From Centroscyllium fabricii (lineage: Eukaryota): 64,000 nucleotides of DNA. Positions 7,406 to 64,000 of the stretch are shown here, in pieces (within the stretch, counting starts at the first letter, position 1; the number at the start of each line of letters is the position of its first letter). The notes under the pieces were generated by a model. That model worked only from the letters and a program-made list of their open reading frames with translations, was not told where the DNA came from and made no database searches. Location: positions 336,784,001 to 336,848,000 of the forward strand of contig JBNRSN020000004.1 in assembly GCA_051313645.2 (NCBI GenBank), written 5' to 3'. The position numbers and the translations under genes are program-made.

Positions 7406-7522
7406 TCCACACCTGCGGTTGCTGAAATATCAGAGGACGACGACTATGAGATAGCGGTCCTGGGGTCAATTGGAAATGGGCAGGACCAGCCGTGGACCAT
7501 CACCCTAAGCCTGTGTGGCCAC

Positions 7523-33600: not shown

Positions 33601-34908
33601 AGAGGCACCCCTCTGAATGCCTTCCTGTAAAATTTTTCGTTGATCACCGAGAGTGCTGACCCCATGTCTAATTCCATAGATATCTCCACCCTCGCAACCT
33701 TGAGGGGAAACCATATAACACTACGATCTGTGGAATTGCCCATGTTGTGGACCTTGAGACTTCCAAGACCCCACTCGTCTCTATTAGAGTTTTCCGATTA
33801 ATTTTCCGAACCATCTTCCACTAGTTTGTTTAGTTTCTTAGTTTTGGACTGTCTCTGTGGCATTTTAGATATCTTCCCAGATCTGCAAGCTGCCGCTATG
33901 TGGCCCATCTTGCCACACTGTCTGCAATCCTTGTCTTTAGCCCAACACCTACACCTCTTGCCAGAGCGGTAGCACTTTTTAGTGCGTGTTGTAATTTCAT
34001 GGGTTTCGTGGTAGATCCCATTGTTCCTAATCTCGGCTGCCCCTGCAGCAGCTGCCTCATGTGCCACGGCAGTTTCTAATGCCTGCTCTAGTGTGATCAT
34101 CCAAAATTTCACACACTAATCTGCCCCTTAAGTAGTTGGGCAGTTCATCCCCAAATGTACCATTCTTAGACAGTCTTCTGAGTTCCGTTATGTACTCTGA
34201 CTGTGACTCTTCTTTTTGTTGTTCTCTTTTAAAGAACTTGAAGCGTTCTGCTATAAATGGGGGTTTTGGGTTTAAATTCTCCCTTAAAACGTTTATAATC
34301 TCTTGCAGCTTTTTGTCCCCTGGCTTGTCTGGGGACACCAGGGTTCTTAACAACCCGTAAGTTTCAGGTCCCATTGCATTCAACAGCGTGTTTACTTTGT
34401 TGGCATCTGCTACTGTCTGTACTTTACAATAGATGTCAAAGCGTTCTAGATATGCCTCCCAGTCTTCCTTCTCTGGCTGGAAGACCCCACAATTGTTTAA
34501 TCTAGCATTGGTTATTATATTCTGAAACATTTTAAATGGCATCTTTTCCCGCCTTTTTCGCTTCTCTTCCGGCGCTTTCCCACCTAAAGATGGCATTTTC
34601 CCACCTTTCCGTTTCTCTTCTGGTGCTTCCCCGCCTAAAGATGGCGTTTTCCCGCCTTCCCGCTTCTCTTCCGGCACGTTTCCCGCCTCCAAAATGGCGT
34701 TCCCCGCCTTTTCTGTCCTTCGCCGCTGAGTTTTTGATTTCTCCCACGGTCTTTGGGAAGGATTGCGCTCCACCTGCACTCTGTCGTTTTCCTGCGGTTG
34801 GAGGTCCAACCCTGATCCTCGACAACCACCGTGTGTGACTGGCTCTGCCGCTCTGGATCTCCTCGGTCGACCCCGATGTGCGACTGCCGCTGCCGTTGTC
34901 CGTGTCAC
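30622..34908 (-). pseudogene. gag-pol: gag-pol broken by multiple stops and frameshifts
   Basis: Fragments: Gag (WEAYLERF, CRQCGKMGHIAAAC), protease (ELDMGS), RT (KIDLSQAYLQ), RNase H (CDASPYG), integrase (HEGHLG, IDFAGP, SDN, NGLAE). Confidence 0.88.
34533..34712. repeat. About 51-bp tandem repeat (about 3.5 copies) in the gag 5' region
   Basis: Recurring AAAGATGGC..TTTTCCC.CC....CG.TTCTCTTC.GG unit. Confidence 0.75.
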
Positions 34909-35790
34909 TCCGCCGACGTCTGATGTCCGACTGCTTCTGTCGATGTCCTGGCCCCACCTCGAGTCGACGTCCGATGTCCGACTGCCTTTGCTGGGCTAGG
35001 TCCTGTGCTCTGCGGCCTTCCTGCCATTGCTGAGCTGGGTACCCGATTCCTGCTGCCGATGCTCCCGTTAGCGATCTTCCCTGCGATGCTGGCGAGCTGG
35101 CTGTACTGAAGGTGCCATGACACTCCCGATTTTGGAGTGCTGGCTGTCTGTGTTCCCTCTGCATTACTGGAGAATCGCTGCTGCTCCCTCTTTTGGAGTG
35201 CAGGGTGTGTCGTAGTGGTCGATGGTCGACTGCGAGAACTGAAAACTTTTCATTCTTCTTATCAGCCAATTACACAGCTGTGGATTCGACCAACCTCGTC
35301 GCCATTGTTAAGTCCACGCTATCGAGCTATAATAACAGCAGACTAGACTTCATGGTATGGAACCAAGAGATGTTTATTCAACCATTACAGAGTCTGGAAC
35401 TGAGCATATCGCTCCACACCCGAACTTAAAAACAACTGTGGTAGACCGCGGTACTGCAATATCCTGACACTACATAAAGTAGTGCCCAGTACAAAACCTT
35501 AAAGGTACATACACCACATTGGTGCCGAAACATTAAACCAGATCAAACTTCAGGAAATTGCATGGATGTCCAAATTATCTCCTCGGAGCCTCATTTTAAT
35601 GTAGTTAACAAGCAAGTGTTTGTGCGCCAGTACAAATGCTGAACAGAAATGGGACGGTAAATAGATGGAAAACCAGCTTAACACCTCTCTGGCAGTTTCC
35701 CAATTGCCTATCTCCCCTTTGCACACATTGGTTGGCCGACTGATCAGCAAGCATGGTGGTTGTGCGGAAAGGTCATCGACCTGAAACATT

Positions 35791-37458: not shown

Positions 37459-38467
37459 TGTGGTAACCGTTATTACCACTGTAATAGTGAAGCACAATAT
37501 AAACCAGCATGTATAGCGGCTGGGTGCACTGTACATAGTTTTTGTATTACGACACTGTCGCAGGGTCAGGTCAGCCACACCTCTAACTCCTCCCCTCAGG
37601 TGAGTGCCTTATAGGTGGGGTCTGACCTGCCCCCATTCATTCTGTACCTGATGTCCGACCGGAGCGTAGCTCTTTTGTAAAGCTAATAAAAGCCGTGCAG
37701 TTCCCGGACGGGCGCGAGGACACAGTTTCCATCAGGGACCTAACGCCCGCCGGGAGCACCACAGCAGACCCCTGGTCAAGCCTCAGCCCGACAGCCACTA
37801 CCTACCGACCACTGGCCTATACACCATCCACAACCCACCGGATTTTGGCCTATGCACATACACACACCGGAGCCCCCGCCACTACCAGCCGAGGACCAAG
37901 AACCGGACGCCGCACCGCAGGCACAGCAGCAGCCGGAGGGCCCGGCCCCACCGCCACTACCGGCACCAGCATCGACACTACCGGCACCAGCGCCGCCGAC
38001 ACTCCCGGCACCAGCGCCGCCGACACTACCGGCACCAGCGCCGCCAAAACTGCAGGCACCGGCGCTGCTAACAGAGACCCGGCGGTCCTCAAGGCAGACG
38101 CGACCGCCGGAGAGACTTATTATGAACTGCTCTGTCCATTCACCCTGCCGGACTTAATTTTCAAAGAAGGGGTGAATGTGGTAACTGTTATTACCACTGT
38201 AATAGTGAAGCACAATATAAACCAGCATGTATAGCGGGTGGGTGCACTATACATAGTTTTTGTATTACGACACTGTCGCAGGGTCAGGTCAGCCACACCT
38301 CTAACTCCTCCCCTCAGGTGAGTGCCTTATAGGTGGGATCTGACCTGCCCCCATTCATTCTGCACCTGATGTTCGACCGGAGCGTAGCTCTTTTGTAAAG
38401 CTAATAAAAGCCTATAGTTAAGGTAACTACTCGTCTTTAGTATTATTGTATTATTGACGATACGTCA
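37459..38467 (+). mobile_element. Internally deleted Gypsy derivative (partial 5' LTR, integrase tail, PPT, 3' LTR)
   Basis: 5' LTR 37459-37694 stops just after AATAAAAGCC and joins VQFPDGREDTVSIRDL; 3' LTR at 38177-38467; TSD CATAG/CACAG. Confidence 0.88.
37960..38070 (+). repeat. 24-bp tandem repeat encoding PAPAPPTL
   Basis: CCGGCACCAGCGCCGCCGACACTA, about 4.5 copies. Confidence 0.85.
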
Positions 38468-38472
38468 CACAG

Positions 38473-38877: not shown

Positions 38878-39339
38878 ATGTTTGTGTCGAGGCATTAGAA
38901 TCGTCCATCAACAATTGCTATAATGTGTGAGCAGCCACTTTAATTACCCTGATCGTATCGCTGCTGTCAATCATGGTCATCTGTCTGGAATTAAAGATGT
39001 CCCTAATCAGTTGTGTAAGGTACAATTCCAGTTGACTAAATCTGAATATTTGGGGCCCAAACACCTGGGGGCCTTTGATCCTGGTGTGAGTGGCAAGATC
39101 CGCCCACCAGGAACCGCAGGGTCAGGGGGAGGTTCCCTGTTTCCGGTGTTTCTGCCGGTCACCTGCTCCAGTAGGGGAGCACTTCAGATGCTGACCATAG
39201 CGGGGTTGGGGGGAGGGGTGTTAGGGGGGGAAAGGTGGCTCTGAGCAGCCGTTCACCTTTATGGCGGCAGCACAGTCCCAACTTGCAACATTAGAAGGGG
39301 CTAGCCGGCTCTCCTTTGTGCTGGCCATGTTCATCACAG

Positions 39340-39494
39340 CTCCTCCAATTCTGGCCTCTTGCACATCCCCGATTTTCATCGCACCCACCGTTGGCTACTG
39401 TGCCTTCCGGTGCCTAGGCCCTAAGCTCTGGAATTCCCTTCCTAAACCTTTCCGACTCTCCAACTCTCTCTTCCCCTTTAAGATCTTCCTTAAA
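39340..39494 (+). mobile_element. L2-type LINE 3' end, left part; continues at 40645-40790
   Basis: AFRCLGPKLWNSLP motif; homologous to 5735-5860. Confidence 0.65.
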
Positions 39495-40639
39495 TGCAAA
39501 GTTACAGCACACAGGATTGGGGGTAAGGTACTGTCTTGGATAGAGAACTGGTTGGCAGACAGGAAGCAAAGAGTTGGAATAAATGCCTCTTTTTCCGAGT
39601 GGCAGACAGTGACTAGTGGGGTACCGAAAGGATCGGTCCTTGGACCCCAGCTATTCGCAACATATATTAATGATCTAGACGAGGGAACTAGATGTAATAT
39701 CTCCAAGTTTGCAGATGACACAAGGCTGGCTGGGCACATGTGCTGTGAGGAGGATGCAGAGAAACGCCAGTATGATTTGGACAGGTTGGGCGATTGGGCA
39801 GATGAATGGCAAATGCAGTATAATGTGGATAAATGCGAGGTTATCCACTTTGGTGGCAAAAACAGGAAGACAGATTATTATCTGAAAGGTAATAGATTGG
39901 GAAAAGGGGAAGTGCAAAGAGACCTGGGCGTCCTTGTGCACCAGTCACTGAAGGTAAGCATGCAGGTGCAACAGGCAGTTAAGAAGTCAAATGGTATGTT
40001 GGCCTTCATAGCGAAAAGATTTGAGTACAGGAGCAAGGATGTCTTGCTGCAGTTGTACAGGGCCTTGGTGAGACCACACCTTGAGTATTGTGTGCAGTTT
40101 TGGTCGCCTTATCTGAGGAAGGATGTTCTTGCCATGGAGAGAGTGCAGCGAAGATTCACCAGGCTGATACCTGGGATGGCAGGAATGACGTATGAGGAGA
40201 GATTGGGTTGATTAGGCTTATATTTGCTTGAGTTTAGAAGAATGAGAGGGGATCTCATTGAAACTTATAAAATTCTAACAGGACAAGAGAGACTAGATGC
40301 AGAAAGGATGTTCCTGATGGTCGGGGAGTCCAGAACCAGGGGTCACAGTCTAAGGATAAGGGGTAAGCCATCTAGGACTGAGATGAGGAGGAATTTCTTC
40401 ACCCAGAGAGTGGTGAACCTGTGGAATCCTCTGTCACAGAATATAGTTGAGGCCAATTCATTAAATAATTTCAAGAAGGAGTTAGATATATTTCTTAAGG
40501 ATAAAGGCATCAAGGGATATGGGGAGAAAACAGGGACAGGGTATTGAATTTGGATGATCAGCCATGATCTCATTAAATGGCAGAACAGGCTTGAGGGGCC
40601 GAATGGCCTACTCCTGCTCCTATTTTCTATGTTTCTATA
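39495..40639 (+). mobile_element. 5'-truncated CR1 (HER1-type) LINE with the RT C-terminal half
   Basis: SGVPKGSVLGP, FADD, LVRPHLEYCVQFWSP; one stop at 40209-40211; apparent TSD TTAAA (39490-39494, 40640-40644). Confidence 0.92.
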
Positions 40640-45999: not shown

Positions 46000-46299
46000 T
46001 GACGTATCGTCAATAATCTAATAAAACTAAAGACGAGTAGTTACCTTGACTCAAGGCTTTTATTAGCTTACAATGGAGCTACGCTCCGATCGAACATCAG
46101 GTACAGAATGAATGGGGGCCGGTCAGTCCCCACCTATAAGGCACTCACCTGAGGGGAGGAGTTAGAGGTGTGGCTGACCTGGCCCCACGACAGTGTCGCA
46201 ACACAGGACAGTTGCATCATGCACCCGACCGCTATACATACAGATAATATTGTATACAATATTATGGTGGTAATTACTGTATATACAACGGTTACCACA
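46000..46299 (-). mobile_element. Solo LTR of the 47-62 kb Gypsy lineage
   Basis: Reverse complement closely matches 38177-38467 and 50350-50639; TSD CTATA/CTGTA. Confidence 0.9.
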
Positions 46300-46649
46300 C
46301 TGTAGACATAGGAGTGACCACAGTACCCAACTTGCAAATTCATTGAAAACCATAATTTTTGGTACACGCAGTAGTTAGAAATGAATCTTCTGACTGTATC
46401 CTCTGAATTTTAAACTCAAACAAAGTGGAGTTCACCAGGAACTCAGTGAATGAATGTTGTAGCATTGCAAGATTCATCAACATATTTCAAACCATTCCTA
46501 GATTAATTTGTTAAATGACATGGGTCTGATGCACCTAACGACTTATATAATACATCTGATTCAGTTGTGGAAACTGAAACCATCACTCTGCACTTATTGA
46601 AAGGGTTTATCAGAAGAATTGCTATCAGTGTCAGTAAGCAATATCAGCA

Positions 46650-46752: not shown

Positions 46753-47332
46753 TGATCTCCATATGGACAGTTTCATCATCATACGCTCATCATGCAGTAT
46801 GGCTGCTCTACTATAGCCACAACTGAACAGACATTTGCTGGACTCCCATTACCTACCAATTGCAAAATAATATGCAGAGGACTTTACACAGGTTATTCAA
46901 AATCTGGAAACAATTATCATGCTGGGAGAACCTAATAATAGTCCCAAGTTATCCTCTGAAGCTAACTTATCAGCAATCCATTTTATAATTGTCTCTTTCT
47001 ACATTATATCAGCAGCATTCTTAAAAAAATTGGTATGTCTGCAAACAGTCTTTTATGAAGATTGTGGTAAACCATTTAGTGTAGTTCACACTGTGTTATT
47101 ATTGTATATAGTTTGTGCTAATAAAGTTGTTCCTTTCTGTAAGGACCTGGACCAGCTGACCCCGCCTCCGGGTATGAGTATAAAGGAGGATGCTCCACCC
47201 ACCTGACTCTCATTCCGGGCGGGACTCATCGCGGACCAGGTCTTGTTCTTAGCGAATAAAAGCCTTTGATTATGATTCACCAAAGACTGGCGTAATTGAT
47301 TAGCGCATCAATTTTATTCGCTGAGATTTACA

Positions 47333-50300
47333 ATGGGTGATGAGCAAGGACAGAGCCAACAGCCAGCTGCACCAGACAACAGGAAATCGATCCTCAAGCC
47401 GAAGACTCTCGACCTCAAACCCCAGGCACCGAACGCTTTGAACGATTTCGAGCACTGGCTGAGCTGCTTCGAGTCGTTTCTGGTGGTGGCCGGAGTCAGC
47501 GATACGCACAGGAGACGGGTCCTAGTCTCCTGCGTCAGTGGCAGGGTCTATGCAATCATCAAGAACACCACTGACTATGATGCAGTGTTGGAGCTGCTGA
47601 GGGCTCGGTACCTCCAGCCTGTCAACGCCATCTACACTCGCCATCTACTCGCCACGCGGAGACAACAGCCTGGTGAGTCGAACGAGGAGTGTCTGGAGGC
47701 TCTTCAGGCTCTCGCTCTGCGCTGCGAATGTGCACCCGTTAACGCCCAGGAGCACATGGACCTCCTCGTCCACGATGCCTACATGGCAGGAATCCGATCG
47801 TACCAGCGCGCACCCGCTTGCTCGAGCAGGATAATTTGTCCCTGAACCAGGCGGTGAAGCTCTCCAATGCGGTGGATGGGGCCCTCCGCAGCCTGGATTC
47901 GTACACGGGGTACGGCTCCCACACAGTTTCCCCAGGGCCTTGGGACTCGCGTTTAATGGCCTCGACGGCAACCGTGGCAGCCACGGCGCCATCCAGACAG
48001 CCAGCGCCCCTGAAATGCCATTTTTGTGGCCAAAAATGCCACCCACGAAGCTCCTGCCCAGCGAAGTCGGCATCCTGCTCCAGGAATCTGCTAAGAAAAC
48101 GGCAGCAGCCTGCGATCTCTACGCCACAGAGTGGCCTCAAGTACCTGGCGCCACCCAACAGCGTTTTTCTAATAAACTATTACTTACCTTGCCTCGGGTG
48201 CGGCCTGCCAGCGCCATTTCCCGCGTTCTGCCATCTTCCTCTAAAGTTAAAACGTGGGCGCTGTCTCCATCTTTGGGGGCGCGGCCTTCTTCATGGCTGG
48301 AATGGCGCGAACGGGCGGCAGAGGGCCCGCCCCATCATGTGACGCCGCCATCTCCCCGCGTCACGTCAGCAGCGGTCCACCCCATCATGTGACGACGACC
48401 GAACGGGCGGCAGAGGCCCCGCCCCATCACGTCACGCCGCCATCTCTCCACGTCACGGCAGCAGCGGTTCCCCCCATCACGTGACACCGCCATCTGATCG
48501 CGTCACAGCATCAGCGGTCCCGCCCCATCACGTGACAACGCCATCTTGGTGCAGGACGGCCTGCATACCTACAGCGGAGGGCCTGACGCCATCTTTGCAT
48601 AGGAAGATTTTTAAAGCACAGGCTGCTGCAACAACTAGTAACTTTAAATCAACCTCTGTGGTCCTGGCAGCTGCAACAGACTACTCCAGACCACTTCAGC
48701 ATCCGGGCGCTGCTGCTGCGCCGCGAGCCCTTCGGTCTTCCCGACGGCATTCTCGGAGACTCACCCACCGGTCCGAAACACCAACATGGCCCGCCGCGTG
48801 CGAATCACAGGCGCCGCCACCAACCGCGGACCCTGCATCGCACAAGGGCCCCAGCGCGCACACCACACTTGCCTCTACGGCCCCGAACCCATCTCTTACT
48901 TTATCAACAATGACCACCCGGGTGGAGGGGCACCTCACCCGCTGTCTGTTCGACACTGGGAGTACGGAGAGCTTTATACACCCTGATACAGTGCGCCGTT
49001 ATTCCCTCAGGGTTAGGCCCACGCATCGTAAAATCTCCCTCGCCTCCGAGTCCCAGACTGTGGACGTCATCGGCTGCTGTACAGTCACCATTACCGTGAT
49101 GGGGACGACATACCGCAACTTTCCAATGTACGTCCTCCCACAGCTCTGTGCCCCTATGTTTTTGGCCTGGATTTCCAGTGCCATCTGCAGAGCTTAACAA
49201 TGGCGTACAGTGGTCCCCTGCCTCCTCTCATGGTCAGCAGCCACGACTGCCCTGCCTCACAACCACACTCCTCTTGCGGTCTGTCTACCTTGAAGATAGA
49301 CCCCTCCTCGCTGTTCGCCAACCTTGACCCTGACTGCAAGCCCATTGCAACCAAGAGTCGACGATACAGCGCGGGGGACCACACCTTTATTAAGGCAGAG
49401 GTTGCCCGGTTGTTGCGGGAGGGCATCATCGAGGCCAGTAACAGCCCGTGGCGGGCCCAGGTGGTGGTGGTTAAGTCGGGCAACAAACAGCGCATGGTCA
49501 TTGACGATAGTCAGACCATTAACCGCTACACTGGGCTCGACGCTTATCCGCTTCCTAGGATAAATGATATGGTCAACCAGATTGCCCAGTATAAGGTCTT
49601 CTCCACCATCGACCTTAAGTCGGCCTATCACCAGCTCCCCATCAGAGCTGAGGACCGTAAATACACTGCCTTTGAGGCAAATGGGCGCCTTTTTCACTTC
49701 CTCCGGGTCCCCTTTGGGGTTACCAATGGAGTTTCGGTCTTCCAACGGGAGATGGACAGAATGGTTGACCAGTACCATTTGCAGGCCACATTCCCGTATT
49801 TGGACAATGTCACGATCTGTGGCCATGATCAGCAAGATCATGATGCCAATTTGGACAGGTTTCTCCGTATGGCCCAGCGTCTGAACCTCACTTACAATGA
49901 GGATAAGTGTGTGTTCAACACTAACCGGTTGGCTATCCTCAGCTACGTAATTGAGAACGGGGTCCTCGGTCCTGATCCCGAACGTATGCGCCCCCTTCAG
50001 GAGCTGCCTCTGCCGCACTCCCCCAAATCTTTGAGGAGATGCCTGGGGTTTTTCTCGTATTATGCACAATGGGTTCCCCATTATGCTGATAAGGCCCGGC
50101 CTCTCCTCAGAGCTACCTCATTCCCGCTCCCATTAGAGGCCCAAATTGCATTTTCACATATTAAGCAGGACATCATCAAGGCAACCATGCACGCTATTGA
50201 TGAGTCTCTCCCCTTCCAGGTCGAAAGCGACGCCTCAGAATTCGCCCTGGCCGCCACCCTCAACCAGGCAGGCAGGCCCGTTGCTTTCTTCTCCCGTACC

Positions 50301-50349
50301 CTACAGGGCCCTGAAGTCCGCCACTCTTCAGTGGAAAAAGAGGCCCATG
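47333..50349 (+). pseudogene. gag-pol: gag-protease-RT-RNase H (5' part) of element A
   Basis: ORFs starting at 47333, 47818, 48481 and 49200; CHFCGQKCHPRSSC, CLFDTGS, FPYLDN, SDAS. Confidence 0.88.
48310..48552 (+). repeat. Imperfect about 48-60-bp tandem repeat in the gag-protease linker
   Basis: Recurring CCCCATCA(C/T)GTGAC.CCGCCATCT. Confidence 0.75.
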
Positions 50350-50663
50350 TGTGGTAACCATATATATGTATATAAATTACCACTGTAATATTGGTGCCAA
50401 TATTACCACTGTACATAGCGGTCGGGTGCATAAGATGTTGCGACACTGTCGTGGGGCCAGGTCAGCCACACCTCTAACTCCTCCCCCAGGTGAGGCCCTT
50501 TATAGGTGAGGACTGACCGGACCCGTTCATTCTGTACCTGTTGTTCGTTCGGAGTATAGCTCCTATGTAAGTCAATAAAAGCCTGTAGTTAAGGTCACTA
50601 CTCGTCTTTGGCTTTATTGAGTTAATTGACGATACGTCAGTTTTATTGACTTAAAAATTCGAA

Positions 50664-53600
50664 ATGGAGAGCGGCGCAGTAAAACCAAAGAAGCTGGACA
50701 TCAGTCCACAGGACCCAGCTGCCGCCACTACCTTCGAACACTGGTTCGGTCTCCTGGAGGCCTACATGGACGCCGCCAAGGCTACAACCGACGGGAACAA
50801 GCTACAGGTTCTCCGGTCCAGGATCTCCAGCCGAGTATTCTCCCTCATCTGGGACGCCAAAACGTACCCAATGGCGGTGGCGAAACTGCGAAAATGCTAT
50901 GAGCGCCCAGTCCACTCTGTCTATGCCAGACATGTGCTCGCGACCAGACCACAACTACTGGGTGAGTCGAATGAACAGTTCGAGCAGGCACTCCAAGCCC
51001 TGGTACGGGTCTGTGGCTGCCAACCACGGACAGCAGAGGAGGAGGCGAATCTCCTCGTCCGAGATGCCTATGTAACAGGACTAAGGTGCGTTGAGGCCCG
51101 CCAGCGGCTGCTAGAGAAAGACTCCCTAACTCTAGAGGAGGCGATCTCCATCTCGAACTCGGTGGAAGGTGCACGCAACAAGCTGCAGGCGTACAGCGGC
51201 ACAAACCCGCAGGTCTACGACGTGTGGGCTGCACCACAACGGGCCCAGGCCTGGGCAGCACCACAACGGGCCGAGACCCCCACGATGGCAGCGACAGCCG
51301 CAAAGACGCAGGCGGACAGAAAGTGCTACTTCTGCGGCCAGGGATTACATCCACGGGCGAGATGCCCAGCGAGGACCGCGACCTGCGAGAGGTGCTCCAA
51401 GAAGGGACACTATGCAAAGGCCTGCAGATCAGCCCTGGCGCCCAACTCCAGGTACAACAGCGCAGCCTGCGAAAGCTCCGCCAGGCCTCAGGTAAGCTGC
51501 AATGGCAGCGCGATCCAGCGACGGTCCGGGGGTAGAGAAAAAGCACCCCCATCTCCCACCCTGATGCGGCAAAGGCCGGCTGCACCCACGGCACGCCAAG
51601 CTCAGCCACGGCCGGCCAGGCGCGACCCCCCAACGCCGGTAGCACGCCCAGCGCGGCCCGCTGCGTGCGAATCACGGGCACCGCCAACCCAACCACCGCG
51701 GCTCGCTGCGTGCGAACCACGGGCACCGCCAACACAGCCACTGCGGCCCGCTGCGTGCGAACCACGGGCGCCGCCAAAGCTCTCACAGCGGTCAGCCACG
51801 TGCGAACCACGGGCGCCGCCATCTTGCCTCCAACGGCCCGCCATGTGCGACCCCTCGGCGCCGCCATCTTGTCTCCAGCGGCCCGCCATGTGCGAACCAC
51901 GGGCGCCGCCATCTTGTGTTCAGCCTCAACCAGCAGGGGGCCCCCACACACAAACACACACTTCGGCCTCAGCCATACCAAAAGTCGAACAGGCTAGGCC
52001 GCACACCCTATCGAACTCGATTATGCTGATTAAAGTTAACAGCCATACTACCAATTGCCTGTTCGACACTGGAAGCACAGAGAGCTTCATCCACCCTGAT
52101 ACAGTGCGACGCTATGGACTGCAGATCCTGCCCACGAGCTACCAAGTCTCCCTTGCTTCACAGTCCCACACCGCGGACGTTACCGGCTACTGCTCCTACA
52201 CGCTCACAGTCAAGTGTTGCGTGTACCGCAACTTTAAGTTGTACATCCTCAAGCAACTGTGCACCCCAACCTTACTGGGACTGGATTTCCAGTGCCACCT
52301 TAAGAGCGTGACAATGGAGTTCGGCGGGACCCTGCCCCCCCTCACCGTCAGTAGCCGGGACAGTCCCTTCCCAAAGCGGAGCCCGGCCTGCGGCCTCTCC
52401 ACCCTGAAAATCGACCCCACCTCACTGTTCGCCAATCTCGACCCCAACTGCAAACCTATTGCTACCAAGAGTCGGCTGTACAGTGTGGGGGATCGGACAT
52501 TTATCAGGTCGGAGGTCGGGCGTATGCTGAAGGAGGGGATAATTGAAGCCAGCACCAGTCCCTGGCGGGCCCAGGTTGTAGTGGTGAAGACTGGCGAGAA
52601 ACAGCAGCTGGTTATCGATTACAGCCAGACTATTAACTGCTACACCGGGCTCGATGCCTACCCACTCCCCCGCATCTCGGACATGGTCAACCAGATCGCC
52701 CAATATAAGGTGTTCTCCACAATCGACCTTAAGTCGGCGTATCACCAACTCCCGATCCGGAAAGCCGACCGCCCGTACACCGCCTTCGAGGCAAACGGTT
52801 GGCTCTACCACTTCCTCCGGGTCCCCTTCGGCGTGACCAATGGAGTGTCAGTGTTCCAACGGGAGATGGACCGCATGGTTGACCAGAACGGGTTGCGGGC
52901 CACCTGCCCCTACCTGGACAACGTGACTATCTGCGGCCATGACCAGCAGGACCACGATGCCAATCTGGCCAAATTCCTTGACACGGCGGAACGGCTGGAT
53001 CTAACGTATAACAAGGACAAATGTGTCTTTAATACAGATCGGCTCGCCATCCTCGGATACGTGGTGGAGAATGGGGTCCTCGGCCCCGACCCACAGCGTA
53101 TGCGCCCATTGCAGGAACTGCCCCTTCCTCACAACCCCAAAGCCTTGAGGAGATGCCTAGGATCTTTCTCCTATTACGCACAATGGGTCCCACAGTTCGC
53201 GGACAAGGCTAGACCACTCCTCAAGGCTGCCGCCTTCCCTCTCTCGGTAGAAGCCCAAACGGCATTCACCCGGATAAAGGAAGACATCATCAAGGCGACC
53301 ATGCACGCCGTTGATGAATCCATCCCTTTCCAGGTGGAGAGTGACGCTTCGGACTTTGCCCTTGCCGCCACCCTGAATCAGGCAGGCAGGCCCGTAGCGT
53401 TTTTCTCCCGCACCTTACAGGGACCCGAAATTCGCCACTCTGCAGTGGAAAAGGAGGCCCAGGCCATCGTGGAGGCCGTGCGCTATTGGCGTCATTACCT
53501 GGCCGGTAAGCGTTTTACCCTACTCACCGACCAGCGGTCGGTTGCGTTTATGTTTAATAATAAACAAAAGGGTAAGATCAAGAATGATAAGATCCTGCGG

Positions 53601-54830
53601 TGGCGGATCGAGCTCTCGACTTACGAGTACGACATTCTTTACCGACCAGGCAAACTCAATGAACCCCCGGACGCACTGTCCAGGGGAATGTGCGCCAATG
53701 CCCAGCTAGACCGGCTGAAGGACCTCCACGAACGCCTCCGTCACCCGGGTGTCACCAGACTCGCCCACTTCGTTAGATCCTGTAGCCTCCCCTACTCCAT
53801 CACGGAGATCAAGGCTATGACCTGAGAGTGCGCTGTTTGCGCCGAGTGCAAACCCCAATTTTTCAGGCCAGACACGGCGCACATCATTAAGGCCACCCGC
53901 CCCTTTGAACGTCTAAGCGTGGACTTCAAAGGCCCCCTCTCCTCCACCGACCGCAACTCGTACTTCCTCATGGTCGTAGACGAGTTCTCCCCCTTCCCCT
54001 TCGCCTTCCCCTGCCCAGATATGACGAGCGCAACGGTGATAAAACACTTCACCACGCTGTTCGCCATTTTCGGTCTCCCCAGCTACATTCATAGCGACCG
54101 GGGGTCATCGTTCATGAGCGATGAACTGCGCCAGTTTCTGCTCCAGAAAGGGGTTGCCTCGAGCATAACGACCAGTTACAGCCCCCGGGGGAACGGCCAG
54201 GTAGAAAGGGAGAATGGGATCATCTGGAAGGCGGTCACCCTGGCTCTGAAGTCCAGAGGCCTTCCAGTGTCCCATTGGCAGGCAGTCCTCCCCGACACGC
54301 TGCACTCGATACGCTCCCTGCTATGTACTGCCACCAACGCCACCCCTCATGATTTATTGTTTTCCTTTCCCAGGAAGTCGACTTCGGGGACAGCTCTTCC
54401 ACCGTGGCTCACGACGCCGGGGCCGGTCTTCCTTAGAAAACACGTCCGCGGCCACAAGACCGACCCCCTGGTAGACAAGGTGCAGCTCCTGCACGCCAAC
54501 CCACAGTACTCCTACGTGCAGTTCCCGGACGGGCGCGAGGACACCATCTCCATCAGGGACCTAGCGCTCGCCGGGAGCACCAGCTCGCCCAGCCACGATA
54601 TTTCGACCACCCCCTGCACCTACAGTGGCCACCAAGGTATCCAGAGCCCCAGACGTGGCCAGCCCAAGACCACCATTCGGATGGCTCGGACCAACCACCA
54701 CCACCAGCATCTGAAGTTTTGGCACCAGCGCCGCTGTCACCACCACCGGACCCGAGCGGGACGGATCACACGGAACTTCTGCCAGAGCCCCGGCGGTCCT
54801 CCAGACAGACGCGACCGCCGGACAAGTTAA
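50664..54830 (+). pseudogene. gag-pol: Single-ORF gag-pol of element B with a nonsense codon at 53823-53825
   Basis: ORFs 50664..53825 and 53919..54830 share a frame; two CCHC knuckles, DTGS, YLDN, RNase H, integrase D,D,E. Confidence 0.92.
51652..51918 (+). repeat. 45-bp coding tandem repeat (PAACEPRAPP...), about 6 copies
   Basis: GCGGCCCGC....GTGCGAACCACGGGC.CCGCCA recurs every 45 bp. Confidence 0.88.
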
Positions 54831-55182
54831 TAATGAACTGCTCTGTCCATTCACCCCGCCGGACTTAAATTTTCAAGAAGGGGTGAATGTGGTAACCATA
54901 TATATGTATATAAATTACCACTGTAATATTGGTGCCAATATTACCACTGTACATAGCGGTCGGGTGCATAAGATGTTGCAACACTGTCATGGGGCCAGGT
55001 CAGCCACACCTCTAACTCCTCCCCCAGGTGAGTCCCTTTATAGGTGAGGACTGACCGGACCCGTTCATTCTGTACCTGTTGTTCGTTCGGAGTATAGCTC
55101 CTATGTAAGTCAATAAAAGCCTGTAGTTAAGGTCACTACTCGTCTTTGGCTTTATTGAGTTAATTGACGATACGTCACCATG

Positions 55183-56631
55183 CAATTGTGGAAGCAGTGC
55201 ACCACTGGCGCCACTATTTGGCCGGTAAGCGTTTTACCCTTCTTACTGACCAGCGGTCAGTAGCGTTTATGTTCCACCATAAACAGAAGGGTAAGATCAA
55301 GAATGACAAGATCCTCAGGTGGCGGATCGAACTCTCCGCCTTTGAGTACGACATTCTGTACCGGCCAGGGAAGCTTAATGATCCCCCGGACGCCCTGCCC
55401 CGAGGATCGTGTGCCAGTGCCCAGTTGGGTAGTCTGAAGACCCTCCACGCTAATCTCTGCCACCCGGGGGTCACCAGGCTCGCTCACTTCGGCAAATCAC
55501 GCAATCTCCCTTATTCCATTGTGGAGATCAAGGCGATGACGCAGGAGTGCCCTGTCTGTGCTGAGTGCAAGCCCCAGTTCTACAGGCCTGACAGGGCGCA
55601 CCTCATCAAGGCCACCCGTGCATTTGAGCGCCTGAATGTGGACTTTAAGGGTCCCCTCCCCTCTACCAATCGTTACTCGTACATCCTCACTGTGGTCGAC
55701 GAGTTCTCCCATTTCCCTTTTGCATTCCCATGCACAGATATGATGAGTGCGACAGTGATAAAGCATTTTATCACGCTATTCGCCATTTTCAGCCTCCCCG
55801 GCTTCGTACACAGCGACCGGGGGTCCTCTTTTATGACCAACGAACTGCGTCACTTTCTGCTCGTGAGGGGGGTTGCCTCGAGCAGAACGACCAGTTACAA
55901 CCCCCGGGGGAATGGCCAGGTAGAGCGGTTTAATGGGACCATCTGGAAGGCCATTTCTCTGGCCATTCGATCCAAAGGCCTTCCAACCTTACACTGGCAG
56001 GAGGTCTTCCAGGATGCGCTACTCGTTCCCTTTTGTGTACAGCTACCGGTTGCACTCCTCACGAGAGACTCTTCTCTTTCCACAGGAAATCGACTTCGGG
56101 GACGTTGCTGCCGACGTGGCTTACCAACCCGGGGCCGGTCCTGCTTCATGGGCATGCCCGGCGGCACAAGACGGACCCTCTTGTTGAACGTGTGCGCCTG
56201 CTGCATGCCAACCCTCAGTACACTTACGTGGAGTACGCAGACAGGCGTGAGGATACCGTCTCAATTAGAGACCTCGCGCCCGCTGGAGACGTTCATGGGG
56301 AGTTGTTGGCGGAGCCCTTGCCCTCCAGGTCGCACTTCCACAACAGGGGCCGACTTTTCATTCACCGGCGCACATTACATCGGGGCCCTTGCCACCTACA
56401 ATGCACGACAGAGTTCATCACATTGCTCAACCTCCGGCGGCTGCTACACCTCCACCAGATCTTCCTGCGTATGAACCTCCTCTTCCACCGGTGGAGTCCC
56501 TGTTCACTTCGGGAGCCCCGTCAGCATCTTTTCCGATTGCGACTACTCCCGCTTTTTCATGTGAATCGCCATTGCTTCGCAGGTCTTCTCAGACTGTTCG
56601 ACCTCCTCAAAGACTGATAACGCAGTGCTGA
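55183..56631 (+). pseudogene. pol: RNase H end and integrase of element A
   Basis: AIVEAVHHWRHYLAGK continues EKEAH from 50349; HHCC, DFKGP, SDRG, NGQVE; frameshift near 56020. Confidence 0.88.
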
Positions 56632-56959
56632 TGTTCGCCCCGCGGGACTTGTTTTTTAAGGAAGGGGTGAATATGGTGAACCATTTAGTGTAGTTCACAC
56701 TGTGTTATTATTGTATATAGTTTGTACTAATAAAGTTGTTCCTTTCTGTAAGGACCTGGACCAGCTGGTTTATACTCATACTCCGGGTATGAGTATAAAG
56801 GAGGATGCTCCACCCACCTGACTCTCATTCCGGGCGGGGCTCATCGCGGACCAGGTCTTGTTCTTAGCAAATAAAAGCCTTTGATTACGATTCACCAAAG
56901 ACTGGCGTAATTGATTAGCGCATCAAAGATGAAGCAGCGCTACCCCCACATACACTCAG

Positions 56960-57330
56960 AATTATAGAATGATACAGCACAGTAGGAGACCATCCGTCAT
57001 GTCGCGACAATGCCGGCGCAGTGAAAGAACTATCCAATTAGTCCCACTTCCCTGCTCTTTTCCTATAGCCCTGTAAATGTTTCCCTTCAGGTATTTATCC
57101 AATTACCTCTTGAAAGTTGTTATTGAATCTGCTTCCATCACCCTTTCAGGTAGCGCATTCCAGAACATTACAACTCGCTATGTAACTTTTTTTTTTCTCA
57201 TGTCGCCTCTGATTCTTTTGCCAATTACCTTAAATCTGTGTCCTTTGGTTAGTGACTCTTCCGCCACTGGAAACAGGAGGTGTGACAGACAAAAGAGTAC
57301 TAAATATACTCTGTCAAAACCCTTCATGAT
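56960..57330 (-). mobile_element. CR1 3' fragment split by element C; continues at 61993-62240
   Basis: MKGFDRV...TKGHRFKVIGKRIRGDMRK on the minus strand; upstream CR1 coding sequence resumes after 61992. Confidence 0.75.
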
Positions 57331-60300
57331 TGTGATAAACATGTATATCACTTGTATATAGTTGACTGCCATGTATTATGATGTAACCTATACCTGTACT
57401 GTATTACACTGTTCTGTGAGATGACACCTGGGACATGCCCAGGTTGGCTCCGCCCACGACTCCTCCCCCGCAGGAGGAGGTATATAAGTGACTGCCCCCA
57501 TCCCCCATGCCATTCCCGGGGACAGTCGACTTGCTGGTGTGTGTTCCAGGTGTAGTGAATAAAAGCCTGATTGTTCCTAATTACTACTCGACTCCGAGGA
57601 CGTTATTGAAGGTTACAATTTTATTCACTACTGTTAAAAATGGATACCACAATGCTCAAGCCAGCAGTGTTCGAAGTGGATCCCCGATCACCAGGAGCAG
57701 CGAACGCCTTCTCACACTGGCGCAATGTACTCGAAGGATACATCAGAGCCAATGCAGCGGTCATCATGACCGAGGAGCAAAAACGGCGACTCCTCCACGC
57801 CCGGGTGGGCCCTCAGGTGTACTCGATGATAGTGGACGCCCCATCGTTCCAAGAGGCCCTCAGGATTCTCGAGGCGGAATACAATCGGGCACCAAATGTG
57901 GTCCACGCTAGGCACAAACTCGCCACCAGAAAGCAACAAACCAGTGAGTCAAGTGTGCAGTTTCTAAGAGCCCTTAGAATACTGGCGCGAGACTGTGACT
58001 GCAGAGCGCTAACGGTCCAAGTCCATATAGACAGCCTTATCAGAGACGCCTACGTAACAGGCTTAAAATCGGACTATGCCAGGCAGAGACTGCTGGAGCA
58101 GAACGGCCAGGACTTACAGGCGACTACAGACTTGGGGCACGCGCTGGATAGCGCCTCAACGGACTTATCCTCATACTCAAATAACTATGCAGGCCCAGCC
58201 CCGCAATCTTGGACAGTGCCGGCGCAACGACCGGCAGAAGAACTAATCACAGAGGCCTACGCGAAAACGGCAGCCAAATGCTATTTCTGTGGACAATCCC
58301 AGCACTCAAGACACAGCTGCCCTGCTAGAGAAGCGACCTGCTCGAAATGCGACAAGAAAGGACATTATGCGAAGGTTTGCAAGAACACTAGCATAAAATC
58401 GAAACTGGGTAGCGCCGCGTGTGGAACAGGGGAGCAGCCATATTGGGCTCACCCATCCCCCACTCAGCATCCCTTGTGGCAGCAGCAGCAACAGCGGCCA
58501 TCTTGGACTCAGCCTCCACAGTACACCACATGGCGGCAGCCATCTTGGGGAGCGGCCTCGGAGGACTACTCTCCGGATCAAGACGACTTGGAGGACCCTG
58601 TGTTAGCATCGATGACCATCGACCAGAGGAAGACTCAACCGCTGGAGAAATCTATGATGCCGGTGGAAGTCAACGGTGAAGAGGTGGTGTGCCTGTTCGA
58701 CAGCGGGAGCACAGTAAGTTTTATACACCAAAGTACTGTAAAGCGCCTCTCCCTTAGAGTAATCCCTGCCTGCCAGAGAATATCTATGGCATCCAAGTCG
58801 GAATTTTCTGACGTCACCGGGCGCTGCACTGTAACACTTAATGTCCAGGGCGCAATATTTAACGATTTTAGTTTTTACGTGCTGCCGCAGCTCTGCGCCC
58901 CCCTACTCCTGGGACTGGATTTCCAGTGCCACCTCCAGAGCGTTACGATGGCATTCGGCGGACCCCTTCCCTCACTCACAGTCAGAAACCGCGGCTCAAT
59001 GCGGTACCCCCAGCACACTACCTGTGGCCTCTCGACCCTTAAGGTTGCCCCTCCATCCCTCTTTGCCAACCTCACCCCAGACTGCAAGCCCGTCGCCACC
59101 AAAAGTAGGCGCTACAGTGCTGGGGACATGGTATTTATAAAATCTGAAGTGCAGCGCCTCCTAAAAGAAGGGGTAATAGAGGCCAGTAATAGCCCCTGGA
59201 GAGCGCAGGTAGTGGTAGTAAAAACCAGAGAGAAGAACCGGATGGTTGTGGACTACAGCCAGACCATAAACCGGTTCACCCAACTAGATGCCTACCCCCT
59301 CCCCCGGATAGCGGACATGGTGAACCAAATCGCCCAATTTAAAGTGTATTCCACGATCGATCTTAAATCGGCTTATCACCAGCTTCCCATCCGCCCAGAG
59401 GACCGTCCTTATACAGCCTTTGAGGCTGACGGTCGCCTCTACCACTTCCTTAGGGTTCCGTTTGGTGTCACGAATGGGGTCTCGGTCTTCCAAAGGGAGA
59501 TGGACCGAATGGTTGATCGGTACGGGCTGCGAGCCACTTTCCCGTATCTTGATAATGTGACCATCTGCGGCCATGACCAGCAGGACCATGACGCCAACCT
59601 CCAAAAATTTCTCCACACGGCCAAAACCCTGAACTTAACATACAATAAGGAGAAATGTGTTTTTAGCACCGCCCGTCTGGCCATCCTCGGCAGCGTGGTG
59701 GAGAACGGAGTCATCGGTCCAGACCCGAACCGCATGCGCCCCCTCATGGAGCTCCCCCTCCCCCACTCCCTCAAAGCCCTTAAATGGTGTTTGGGATTTT
59801 TCGCCTATTATGCCCAGTGGGTCCCTAATTATGCGGACAAAGCTCGGCCACTACTTAAATCGGCCTCTTTTCCCCTTTCTGCAGAAGCCAACTCGGCGTT
59901 CTGCAGAATTAAAAACGATATTGCCAAAGCCACGATGCACGCTGTGGATGAGTCCGTCCCGTTTCAGGTAGAGAGTGATGCATCTGACTTTGCCCTGGCC
60001 GCCACCCTTAACCAGGCGGGCAGACCCGTGGCCTTCTTTTCACGTACCCTCCAAGGCCCCGAAACCCGCCACTCCTCAGTCGAAAAGGAGGCCCAGGCCA
60101 TCGTTGAAGCAGTGCGGCATTGGAAGCACTACCTGGCCGGCAAACGTTTTACCCTGTTGACTGACCAACGATCAGTCGCATTCATGTTCAACAACAAGGA
60201 ACGGGGTAAAATAAAGAACGACAAGATATTAAGGTGGAGAATTGAACTATCTGCGTTCAATTATGATATCTTGTACCGGCCTGGGATATTTAACGAACCC

Positions 60301-61987
60301 CCAGATGCCCTATCCCGCGGTACCTGTGCCAGCGCACAGGCTGACCGTCTCCAAACCCTTCACAATGACCTCTGCCACCCGGGGGTCACCAGGTTGGTCC
60401 ACTTTGTGAAGTCCCGCAACCTCCCCTACTCCATCGAGGAGGTCAAGACCCTGACCAGCAACTGCCAGGTCTGCGCGGAGTGCAAGCCGCACTTCTACCG
60501 GCCAGACCGGGCGCACTTGATCAAGGCCACTCGCCCCTTTGAACGACTCAGCATCGATTTTAAAGGGCCCCTTCCCTCATCTAATAGGAATGTGTATTTC
60601 CTTAACATTATAGATGAGTACTCCCGCTTCCCTTTCGCCATTCCCTGCCAGGACATGACTTCCGCTACCGTCATCAAAGCCCTTAATAGCATCTTCTCCC
60701 TGTTCGGGTACCCCAACTATATCCATAGTGACCGGGGGGCCTCTTTTATGAGTGACGAGCTGCGTCAGTTTCTGCTAGCGAAAGGGATCGCAACTAGCAG
60801 GACTACCAGCTACAACCCCCGGGGGAACGGGCAGGTAGAGAGGGAGAACGCCGCGGTCTGGAAAGCCATCCAGCTAGCCCTACGGTCTAAAGGCTTCCCA
60901 ATCACCCGATGGCAGGACGTCCTCCCTGAAGCGCTCCACTCTATCCGGTCCCTCCTGTGTACTGCCACTAATGCCACCCCTCACGAACGACTTTTTGCCT
61001 TCCCCAGGAAGTCAGCTTCCGGGACCTCGCTACCATCGTGGCTACTATCTCCGGGACCGGTCCTGCTTCGGAAGCATGTGGGGGACACAAGGCAGATCCC
61101 CTAGTCGAACGGGTCCACCTCCTGCACGCCAATCCCCAGTACGCATACATAGCGTACCCCGACGGGAGGGAGGACACCGTGTCCATAAAGGACCTAGCCC
61201 CAGCAGGAGTCCCCAAACCCAGCCCCGCCAGGCAGCCCGCGCTTCCAAGAAACCCCGCCCAGCAGCCCGCGCACCCAAAACGTTCGGTGACGCTGGGCCC
61301 AGTACCCCAGTATGTCCACAAGGCACCTGCGAGCAGCACGACCTGGCCCCAAGCTTGGATCCACAACGCGCGCCCACTAGAGTTAGAGGACGAAGGAGAG
61401 AACGCGCCCCCTGCTGTCAGAATAAGGGCACCACCGCCACACAGAAGTAACACAACAACCACCACTAGTCGACCGGCATCAATAGAGCAACCGACACAAA
61501 CAGCCGCTCCACGACCACGAACACCACAGGCACCACCAGCGGTGCGAAGATCGACGCGGATAACCAGACCGCCTGAAAGACTCAACCTGTAGTCAAAAGA
61601 ACTTTGTTTTAAATAAAAAAAAAAAATTCTTTCCTTATCTCTCTCACTGTAATTATTAGTCTTTCACCCCGCCGTACTTTCGTTTTAAAGAATGGGTGAA
61701 TGTGATAAACGTGTATATCACTTGTATATAGTTGACTGCCATGTATTACGATGTAACCTATACCTGTACTGTATTACACTGTTCTGTGAGATGACACCTG
61801 GGACATGCCCAGGTTGGCTCCGCCCACGACTCCTCCCCTGCAGGAGGAGGTATATAAGTGACTGCCCCCATCCCCCATGCCATTCCCGGGGACAGTCGAC
61901 TTGCTGGTGTGTGTTCCAGGTGTAGTGAATAAAAGCCTGATTGTTCCTAATTACTACTCGACTCCGAGGACGTTATTGAAGGTTACA
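57331..61987 (+). mobile_element. Ty3/Gypsy retrotransposon C, nearly intact
   Basis: 287-bp LTRs at 57331-57617 and 61701-61987 (3 differences by eye); 5-bp TSD ATGAT; PPT before 61701. Confidence 0.96.
57640..61592 (+). CDS. gag-pol: Single-ORF gag-pol of element C with one frameshift near 61080
   Basis: 1154-aa ORF with CCHC knuckles, DSGS, YLDN, RNase H and integrase; the C-terminal GHKADPLVERV...RRSTR..PPERL lies in another frame. Confidence 0.9.
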
Positions 61988-62551
61988 ATGATATTGAACA
62001 CTTCTTTCAAATCTCCCCAACCTCCTCTGCTCTCAGGAGAACAACCCCAGTTTCTCTAGTCTCTCCACGTAACTAAAGACTTTCATCCCTGATATTATTC
62101 TAGTAAATCTAAACTGCACCCTCTCGATGGCCTTGACATCCTTCCTAAAGTGTGATGCCCAGAAGTGGTTACGATACTCTAGCTGGGGCCTAACTAGTGT
62201 TTTAAAGGTTTAACAAACTTCCTTGCTTTTGTACTCTATGGTGTCAATTTTAACTGAGCTGTGGAGGAGGGCTTAGAGCCTTGCGGGGGATTAAAATCGC
62301 TAAAACCAGCAGGCGGGACCCCCCCCCCCCCCCACCTGGTTCCCGACTCCGAGCTATTTTAATCCAGGCGTCCCAAATCTGTCCCACCTGCAACAGTGGC
62401 CTTTATAATACTATTTTAACCATTCCTTGCAATTTTAATGCTTTTCTCATGTGAAACATGCTTGGTGGGAATCATGCCTGTGAAACCTGGTGTGAGCACT
62501 ATTGGCATTAAAGAGGAGATTTGATCAGTCATCATTTGCAGATGGCAGGAC

Positions 62552-64000
62552 TGTCACAGGGTGCCTGTTCCTTTAAGAATTAGAAACAGTTTTTGCTGTT
62601 GCTCCACAGCTGTTTTGAGGAATGGGTTCCCTTGTTATGTCATTAACTGTTCTATTATCTGTGTATTTGCTAGTTGTGCTCTGCTCTCATTGCCTCGAGG
62701 TTATTGGCTATCACCAAATGGTATACTTGCTGGTTTTAGTATATAAACTGGAGGTAGGCTTGAGAGCAGCTGCGGGATCATTGTGTTGTAATGTGTTACT
62801 GAATTGGACTTCTACCACACATTCTTCAGGCCACTGGACGAAGTGGGTACTGCTGTTGAGCTGAGTGGCCGTCAGAGGCAAGGAGGTTGGGAGATCGACT
62901 GACTCAACTTTTACTTTGCACTCTGCTATTTCAGGTGCTCAGGCTGAGTTACCCGACAGGGGCATTGGGGTGGAACTCATATCACTCTGCCTTGACAGTG
63001 CGCCCTGCTATCGGGAACCCAGCAATGGACAACTCATCTGTGGAGTAAGGGCGTTCCCCTGCTTGTGGATCGGAATCCACTACTTGGACATTCGTTTCTT
63101 CATCCGAACCCAGGTTTGGACATTGGTGACCTGTATGCAGAAGCTGTTCCCAAATCCTCTACGAAGTAGGTGGATTGTGATGTCATGCTCGCAGAGGAGG
63201 ACCTGTTCGTTTCTCTTTAAGTGTTTGGATGGTGGTTGTCCAGCTTCTAGAGGAGAGCTCGTTTAAGTGGACAGTTATGCCTGGACTTGTATTTCTCGGG
63301 AGAATGACGCGCTTGGTTGTGTGGCACCCCTCTATCCATTACTCGCTATTTTGGGAAGTCTGTGCCAGTCTTTAGACAAGACTTGTGTTAAATATGTGTC
63401 TTATATAATTGTATATGTGTCTTATATAATTGTATGTTTATGGTATTCTATGGGGTTTTTGTGACAAAGGAGTTTTGCTATCTAAGACGTTTCAGTGTCT
63501 CTGCATTTGGGCCCCGCCTTCATTCCACTTACACCCAACCGTTACAGAATGATCCCGTCAAATGGGGCTCAGCAGACACTGTACCGTCTAAGCACTCCTT
63601 AAATTTTTTTTTTGTAGACTGTTGTCTCTTCTCTGTACCCTCCGCCCACCCTATTTCGGCTTATTGGGTATTTGGGCCGTCACTGTCGGCCCTTAAGGGG
63701 GGGGGTCCTGTCACAGGGTGCCTGTTCCTTTAAGAATTAGAAACAGTTTTTGCTGTTGCTCCACAGCTGTTTTGAGGAATGGGTTCCCTTGTTATGTCAT
63801 TAACTGTTCTATTACCTGTGTATTTGCTAGTTGTGTTCTGCTCTCATTGCCTCGAGGTTATTGGCTATCACCAAATGGTATACTTGCTGGTTTTAGTATA
63901 TAAACTGGAGGTAGGCTTGAGAGCAGCGCGGGATCATTGTGTTGTAATGTGTTACTGAATTGGACTTCTACCACACATTCTTCAGGCCACTGGACGAAGT
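62552..64000 (+). mobile_element. Non-autonomous LTR element with about 1-kb LTRs and a 148-bp interior; 3' LTR cut by the window end
   Basis: 62552 onward is repeated from 63709; the first copy ends ...CCCGTCA (63560) and is followed by PBS-like TGGGGCTC (63563) and PPT AAGGGGGGGGG (63695-63705). Confidence 0.75.

Follow-up and report, generated by a model that had tools for sequence, protein, structure and literature searches.

The window analysed here, a stretch of 64,000 nucleotides of the Centroscyllium fabricii genome (assembly GCA_051313645.2, contig JBNRSN020000004.1, positions 336,784,001 to 336,848,000), carries three long terminal repeat (LTR) retrotransposons, named A, B and C, whose reverse transcriptases (RTs) end their YxDD-type active-site motif with an asparagine (YLDN). 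Element A extends over positions 47063-56925, B is inserted inside the RNase H region of A (50350-55177) and C lies at 57331-61987, all on the + strand. Each of them is bounded by TG...CA ends, contains a polypurine tract and is flanked by a 5-bp target-site duplication (TSD; AAGAT for A, CCATG for B and ATGAT for C). Pfam profiles recognized protease, RT, RNase H and integrase in that order in the three polyproteins and detected no chromodomain in them, and env was not seen in any of the three. None of the copies keeps an unbroken frame, A being disrupted by frameshifts and the insertion of B, B by an in-frame stop and C by a frame change.

Element A starts with a 5' LTR (47063-47310), followed by an RT and the start of RNase H (49032-50349) that are cut by the insertion of B; the rest of the element, i.e. 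a frameshifted RNase H and integrase with the polypurine tract, resumes at 55178-56671, and the 3' LTR (56672-56925) is 94% identical to its 5' counterpart. Element B comprises a 5' LTR (50350-50639), a gag-pol frame for Gag, protease, RT, RNase H and integrase (50655-54830; in-frame stop at 53823-53825), a polypurine tract followed by AA ahead of the 3' LTR (54872-54887) and a 3' LTR (54888-55177). Element C has a 5' LTR (57331-57617) with a TATA-like box near 57483 and an initiator-like CATTC near 57511, which we assign tentatively to its promoter, a single gag-pol frame of the same content (57640-61592; frame change near 61080) and a 3' LTR (61701-61987). The first-pass annotation had put the LTR pairs of B and C at about 99% identity, which is accurate for B (99.0%) and slightly generous for C (98.0%). 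Between its Gag and protease, B also contains in-frame 45-bp tandem repeats (51606-51920) encoding a Pro/Ala/Cys-rich linker, and similar repeats are found in A near 48308-48546.

Results

The YLDN motif is shared by three diverged elements under purifying selection

As initially reported, YLDN is encoded at 49797-49808 in A (TATTTGGACAAT), 52911-52922 in B (TACCTGGACAAC) and 59545-59556 in C (TATCTTGATAAT), in each case in frame, on the + strand and within an RVT_1 domain. The asparagine aligns to the second aspartate of YLDD in the RT of Ty3 (PDB 4ol8), which is the best sequence match in PDB (E 3e-50) and the second-best fold match. Other RT motifs found in the window are YLDD (twice), FADD and QMDD. 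The proportion of synonymous differences between A, B and C reaches 0.72-0.79, which is near saturation, and the asparagine is nonetheless retained, in line with the earlier remark that synonymous positions vary around a kept Asn. Since Asn has been kept despite nearly saturated synonymous sites and the other RTs of the window differ, the shared YLDN is not a matter of chance. Nonsynonymous differences are limited to a proportion of 0.10-0.13, and the ratio of nonsynonymous to synonymous substitution rates (dN/dS) over 200 RT codons is 0.04 for A-B and 0.05 for B-C, the A-C pair being saturated. The RT is thus under strong purifying selection. The motif-A catalytic aspartate (IDLKS, 59359-59361 in C) and the first aspartate of motif C are invariant in 92/92 aligned homologues. 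An AlphaFold model displays an ordinary RT-RNase H fold (predicted local distance difference test, 86.9) with the motif on the catalytic beta-hairpin, its top matches being the RTs of cauliflower mosaic virus and Ty3.

Asparagine is the family state in the C. fabricii genome

In a protein search of the same genome with the RT of C, all 150 scored matches showed 97-100% identity. At the nucleotide level, exact patterns with a narrow context yielded 32,291 Asn, 84 Asp and 126 Ser sites, where Ser serves as a control for the same A-to-G change one base further along the Asn codon. Since Asp is no commoner than this control, Asp variants are at the level expected from mutation after insertion. The narrow patterns missed the Val codons GTG and GTA; a broader pattern, which has no Ser control, counted 225,743 YxDN versus 468 YxDD sites in this 7.2-Gb genome. 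Both Asn codons are in use (49 and 21 of 70 loci). Among 20 high-scoring C-family copies picked for their long open frames, 18 have both LTRs (94-100% identical, including three identical pairs) and a single frame of 1313-1350 codons, and all of these carry YLDN. The same 18 copies invariably display two CCHC knuckles, the protease DSG and the motif-A Asp, while the exact first RNase H motif is found in 17 and the integrase HSDRG in 15 of them. Asn is therefore the state of the family and not the decay of individual copies, and no sizeable Asp-bearing sister family is present in this genome. Asn has long been maintained in these families although a single transition gives Asp.

The RT-motif sites of the lineage amount to about 226,000, i.e. 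about one per 32 kb, and the lineage may be a main driver of the 7.2-Gb genome size. Many of the sampled copies have no LTR pair within 3.4 kb on each side. At one locus (G000:C1:100032728-100045822), four leader matches are spaced by about 4.36 kb, which suggests a tandem array of C-family elements with shared LTRs.

Asn and Asp alternate within a single lineage

The first-pass annotation had asked whether most intact family members carry YLDD. They do not: among the best 120 of 1068 homologues, Asn dominates (100 YxDN, 19 YxDD and 1 YLGN). For the phylogeny, 147 of 149 cluster representatives were covered, short matches were dropped (254 of 272 rows kept) and the Asn/Asp column was removed. 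A single clade of 210 rows with a support of 100 groups 142 Asn, 64 Asp and 4 other sequences, while the 44 rows outside it all end in DD. Parsimony counts 20 Asn/Asp changes, compared with a mean of 55 and a minimum of 44 in 500 shuffles, and places Asp at the root, an estimate that is approximate given many weak inner branches; a model without reversal needs 40 Asn gains. Asn and Asp thus alternate within the lineage, with at least some 20 changes on this approximate tree. Save for one YLEN member, every cluster defined at 90% identity contains a single state. The closest named proteins to A, B and C come from sharks and rays, whose clade has Asn in 16/16 rows. Judging from source names, corals and a sea anemone also host Asn families; a damselfly and a whipworm are among the sources of Asp families.

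The lineage is marked by a Pro-to-Gln change in WRAQ, an Arg-to-Ser change with an inserted residue in DYSQT, NGV in place of NAP and, in RNase H, a second catalytic Asp followed by Gln (TDQ, 60163-60168 in C). All of these marks are common to Asn and Asp members. Some RNase H columns do differ between the two groups, in a comparison uncorrected for kinship. Two other Gypsy RTs of the window are only 28% and 34% identical to the lineage; we take these elements to be Mag-like and CsRn1-like, as provisional labels. No relatives were found in a viral-contig scan. The lineage motif was unmatched in the searched supplement files of PMC6238403 and PMC8556966 (one and three files, respectively, fell outside the search), and no match could be made with the named metazoan Gypsy clades MolGy, PolGy, Cigr-1, Tor, Mag and CsRN1, for which reference sequences were not found; the lineage may already bear a published clade name. 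Two of its proteins, P0013 and P0071, are filed in NCBI under bacterial metagenome bins, probably as a result of contamination.

The leader pairs with the poly(A)-signal segment of the element's own LTR

The three elements had been described as lacking a primer-binding site (PBS). This holds for a tRNA-type PBS; however, a self-complementary primer-site segment is present in each of them. Just past the 5' LTR, positions +2 to +14 of the leader are complementary to an LTR segment ending in an AATAAA-type signal. In A, the LTR segment at 47247-47261, which ends in the A-run of the poly(A) signal, pairs with the leader at 47312-47326 over 15 bp with one G-U; in B, the corresponding segments (50568-50580 and 50641-50653) form 13 bp without G-U; and in C, the candidate self-primer at 57552-57564 meets a perfect 13-nt complement at 57619-57631. 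ARAGORN found no tRNA gene in the window, and Rfam returned a single chance-level match (E 0.91).

We surveyed this helix in a set of 58 LTR-paired elements, taken both from this genome and from metagenome contigs; 11 of the elements were dropped for an ill-defined LTR end or anchor. The remaining 47 elements represent 29 distinct LTR-leader pairings, and the helix is found in 27 of them, the other two looking wrongly delimited. Within the 27 helices, 341 of 351 positions are Watson-Crick pairs, two are G-U and eight are mismatches, and pairing drops to about half beyond +14. At positions +8 to +13, leaders match their own LTR at 5.5 of 6 positions versus 3.3 for the LTRs of other elements, and a C-G/G-C swap in the C family is concordant on both sides in 30/30 copies. 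Eight more Asn elements with LTR pairs also have the helix, which is partial in one case. None of the 27 leaders that form the helix contains TGG within its first 8 nt (no tRNA library was screened for priming by internal fragments), while the three other Gypsy elements of the window with LTR pairs all have TGG 0-1 nt past the LTR. Since whole-region folding z-scores are modest (-1.3 to -2.5), the case for the helix rests on covariation and not on energy.

On the LTR side, the partners of +11/+12 form a near-invariant AG (G in 26/27, A in 24/27) and GCC nearly always follows the A-run, both of which may be cleavage or initiator signals. A TATA-like box is located about 81 nt upstream of the A-run and the initiator-like CATTC about 30 nt after this box, and from both a transcription start 35-40 nt ahead of the helix is predicted; alternatively, a start at the near-invariant A would leave an 11-nt primer as in Tf1. 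Because the helix sits at the PBS position, is nearly devoid of wobble, has a sharp edge and shows swaps without intermediates, we favour a copied primer: the self-complementary site probably reflects Tf1-like self-priming from the element's own RNA. The same helix is formed by YLDD members of the lineage (16 bp in L124 and 15 bp in L254, besides L163 and L185 as candidates without an LTR pair). The priming structure thus appears to be lineage-wide and not tied to Asn.

Discussion

We estimate at about 0.85 the probability that A, B and C each represent a different family within one animal Ty3/Gypsy lineage, env-less and with a single frame, in which RTs polymerize with two aspartates and an asparagine, and that these RTs have driven the recent amplification of their own families. 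The proposal of a naturally functional two-aspartate RT, already made in the first-pass annotation, is strongly supported by the population and comparative evidence, and the natural enzyme very probably works in this way. The D186N enzyme of human immunodeficiency virus 1 is reported to be severely impaired. Right-hand polymerases with two aspartates do exist, as negative-strand RNA virus polymerases use GDN. Following general polymerase chemistry, both metals would be bound by the motif-A Asp together with the first Asp of YxDD, leaving the Asn amide to take over the secondary role of the third residue at the primer end and metal A, in an enzyme acting in cis. The lineage-wide changes (Arg to Ser with an inserted residue in the fingers, Pro to Gln, NAP to NGV and RNase H TDQ) would make either Asn or Asp workable; a weaker form of co-adaptation, in which these changes made Asn tolerable, may thus apply. 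Minus-strand synthesis would be primed from the element's own RNA, after a cut past the A-run, presumably by RNase H as in Tf1, that frees a 3' end beside the unique 5' region (U5); the 5' poly(A) signal would at the same time be masked by the leader helix.

Several observations weigh against this reading or parts of it. In Ty1, the same substitution (D211N) lowers the polymerization rate constant (kpol) 223-fold with no transposition, and RNase H suppressors restore only 5-10% according to PMC2148107. The search for a compensating residue was negative: the 18 residue states whose frequencies differ most between Asn and Asp members were compared across 7-8 well-supported independent pairs, and none tracked Asn or showed a consistent direction (a comparison of low power). 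Regarding priming, a YLDD copy with a clear TSD (L253) is devoid of the helix, as are two further YLDD elements with a repeat pair, both poorly delimited; in addition, transcription is predicted to start about 35-40 nt before the pairing segment, unlike in Tf1, and the cleavage step is conjectural. Finally, this genome hosts a small YLDD family of the same lineage, to which about 30 of the 100 listed Asp rows belong, i.e. about 140 of the 468 Asp sites by extrapolation. It is placed elsewhere in the lineage (rows L255 and L257 of a separate tree, in which row L260, a neighbouring element taken up by best match, was disregarded). Ten of its copies were compared with C: the identity of their RT segments is 54-72% for nine and 47% for the tenth, and an LTR pair (95-97%) is present in only two, whose longest frames are 287 and 406 codons. 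Such a degenerate family is an unlikely source of RT for more than 200,000 Asn copies.

The latter point bears on the view that the Asn polymerase is dead or crippled and that its copies are mobilized in trans by a YxDD RT, the frame being kept for Gag, protease, RNase H and integrase. Replacing either Asp abolishes the activity of retroviral RTs (as stated in PMC554778), Ty1 D211N fails to transpose (PMC2148107), and candidate helpers exist in the genome as the same-lineage YLDD family and unrelated YxDD Gypsy elements. However, this family is outnumbered (about 140 versus 225,743 sites), diverged and apparently degenerate in the copies retrieved, and Asn families recur in corals and sea anemones. 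Besides, mobilization in trans does not explain why the polymerase domain is under purifying selection, with a dN/dS near 0.04, or why the other two aspartates never vary, and we consider it very unlikely, even though it had been put forward as a possible refutation. Even less credible is a conversion of Asn to Asp after transcription, by adenosine-to-inosine editing of the first codon position or by deamidation, which would provide a working YxDD enzyme. A single edit is enough to turn the Asn codon into Asp, and relatives do switch between both residues; but the single-frame message is also the template, so that edits would enter the progeny, and Asp (84) is not enriched over Ser (126). As for deamidation, it is slow for Asn before Val or Ile.

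The link between the motif and priming calls for more nuance. The first-pass annotation had suggested that Asn is co-adapted with the unusual priming mode, and in its strict form (Asn needed for or selected by self-priming, for instance by slowing polymerization relative to the RNase H primer cut) the hypothesis has some appeal: among the sequences examined here, Asn is only seen within the lineage with a self-complementary leader, it persists in 16/16 shark-and-ray rows at one transition from Asp, and suppressors of Ty1 D211N map to RNase H (PMC2148107), a domain with the unusual TDQ in the lineage. Yet YLDD members share the helix, TDQ is common to Asn and Asp members, the lineage root is reconstructed as Asp, with 20 or more switches thereafter, and none of the RT residue states compared tracks Asn; the strict pairing is therefore not supported and seems improbable. 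Priming mode and Asn would rather be two traits of one lineage. Somewhat less improbable, although still doubtful, is the view that the helix only hides the 5' poly(A) signal and perhaps regulates translation, with an unrecognized host RNA as primer. It would account for a helix that always spans an AAUAAA-type hexamer and whose formation is limited to the 5' LTR, as well as for the offset between the helix start and the predicted transcription start. On the other hand, the helix begins exactly at the PBS position (+2), TGG is missing from 27 helix-forming leaders as opposed to 3/3 other Gypsy elements of the window, and a purely structural helix should tolerate wobble, whereas few G-U pairs, a sharp edge at +14 and 30/30 double-sided swaps are observed. 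Self-priming from the element's own RNA thus keeps our preference. Only tentatively, and with slightly better odds than a purely poly(A)-hiding helix, can it be proposed that Asn is selected in large parts of the lineage, where it would adjust the speed or metal use of the polymerase to the primer cut by the TDQ RNase H. If so, a single 13-bp helix would act twice, as a silencer of the 5' poly(A) signal and as the source of the primer, and the repeated Asp/Asn switching would constitute a natural experiment on the third carboxylate.

Among LTR retroelements, nematode BEL/Pao elements with YVDN, namely C. elegans Cer7-Cer12, Atlas and other Ancylostoma ceylanicum belpaoviruses, provide a natural precedent for Asn in place of the second Asp of YxDD. 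Atlas combines YVDN with identical LTRs and an unbroken frame (bioRxiv 10.1101/2021.11.23.469668), and the activity conferred by Asn in YVDN elements was said in 2005 to "remain to be determined" (PMC554778); our literature search found no statement on their priming. The lineage differs from them by its superfamily, the env not being seen, the alternation of Asn and Asp on the tree and a copy number of about 2 x 10^5, which permits a mutation-rate control. It also has two CCHC knuckles (in 18/18 long-frame C-family copies) and a Ty3-like RT, unlike the triple Cys-His box that PMC554778 gives for BEL. The Asn is likely of independent origin in the two groups, even though our tree contains no BEL sequence. 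In the case of Ty1 D211N, the same substitution was laboratory-made: the enzyme polymerizes in vitro with a preference for Mn2+ and transposition is lost (PMC2148107), in agreement with the first-pass annotation. In contrast, the lineage carries Asn naturally, as a fixed state of families that have amplified massively. The same paper cites an equal or greater flexibility at the third Asp for Ty3 RT.

With respect to classification, the lineage shares with Ty3 the order protease-RT-RNase H-integrase and agrees with Ty3/Gypsy (Metaviridae) in domain order, LTR ends, polypurine tract, TSD and RT type. It departs from Ty3 at the motif (YLDN versus YLDD), in the fingers (DYSQT versus DYR-T) and in motif B (NGV versus NAP), and from usual Ty3/Gypsy elements by an Asn as third catalytic residue and no TGG-type tRNA PBS. 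The missing third Asp is a variant trait that leaves the lineage inside Ty3/Gypsy. Concerning priming, Tf1/Tf2 of Schizosaccharomyces pombe have no tRNA PBS, their PBS complements their own R (repeat) region, and RNase H cuts after base 11 (PMC7175516). Like in Tf1/sushi elements, the PBS of the lineage is complementary to the element's own R sequence; in contrast to Tf1, its 13-nt partner is the poly(A)-signal segment, so that the arrangement appears Tf1-like in logic but not in geometry. Its RT also has signatures of its own. With no chromodomain detected by Pfam in A, B and C and a tree without a labelled Tf1/sushi RT, we regard the lineage as working like Tf1 and do not class it as a Tf1/sushi member.

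A literature search lacking most subscription journals and Repbase retrieved no report of YxDN in Ty3/Gypsy, the nematode BEL papers being the only ones found on an RT with YxDN, and only unrelated literature for the peptide signatures of the lineage; PBS pairing with the poly(A) signal is not described in the self-priming literature found (Tf1-group, GalEa and terminal-repeat retrotransposons in miniature, or TRIM). The substitution itself thus has precedents in BEL/Pao and in laboratory mutants, and what the lineage appears to add is a second superfamily, the scale of the evidence and natural Asn and Asp sister families. YxDD is treated as an invariant mark of an active RT, and the lineage indicates that Asn very probably can replace its last Asp. 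If all were full length, the approximately 226,000 Asn-bearing sites would represent up to roughly 1 Gb of the 7.2 Gb as an upper bound. Annotation in which YxDN counts as dead, or in which a tRNA PBS is required, would misjudge a family that contributes greatly to genome expansion. The sister families with Asn and Asp also offer ready natural pairs for probing the role of the third carboxylate, and a primer site complementary to the poly(A)-signal segment of the same element probably extends tRNA-free priming to a widespread animal Gypsy lineage.

Other elements of the window

Two further pieces related to A, B and C were noticed. A solo LTR on the - strand (46000-46300), about 81% identical to the LTR of B, apparently has a 5-bp target duplication. 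At 37459-38468 (+), a member of the same lineage with an internal deletion retains an integrase tail and a polypurine tract between two LTR parts that are 97% identical, the first of which ends just past its poly(A) signal. The other Gypsy elements with TGG primer sites are located at 6269-10945 (+), 17233-22249 (+) and 30313-35520 (-), with LTR pairs at 98%, 94% and 95% identity, respectively; the first has QMDD in place of YxDD and the second, provisionally labelled CsRn1-like, a DUF7041 Gag. A fragment of long interspersed nuclear element (LINE)-type RT with a FADD motif is found at 39225-40211 (+), amid several dispersed repeats resembling LINEs or short interspersed nuclear elements (SINEs). 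Finally, 62551-64000 contains direct repeats that are 99% identical and about 1.16 kb apart. A G-rich tract precedes them and the interval holds no long frame; they may belong to a young TRIM-like, non-coding element that extends past the end of the window.

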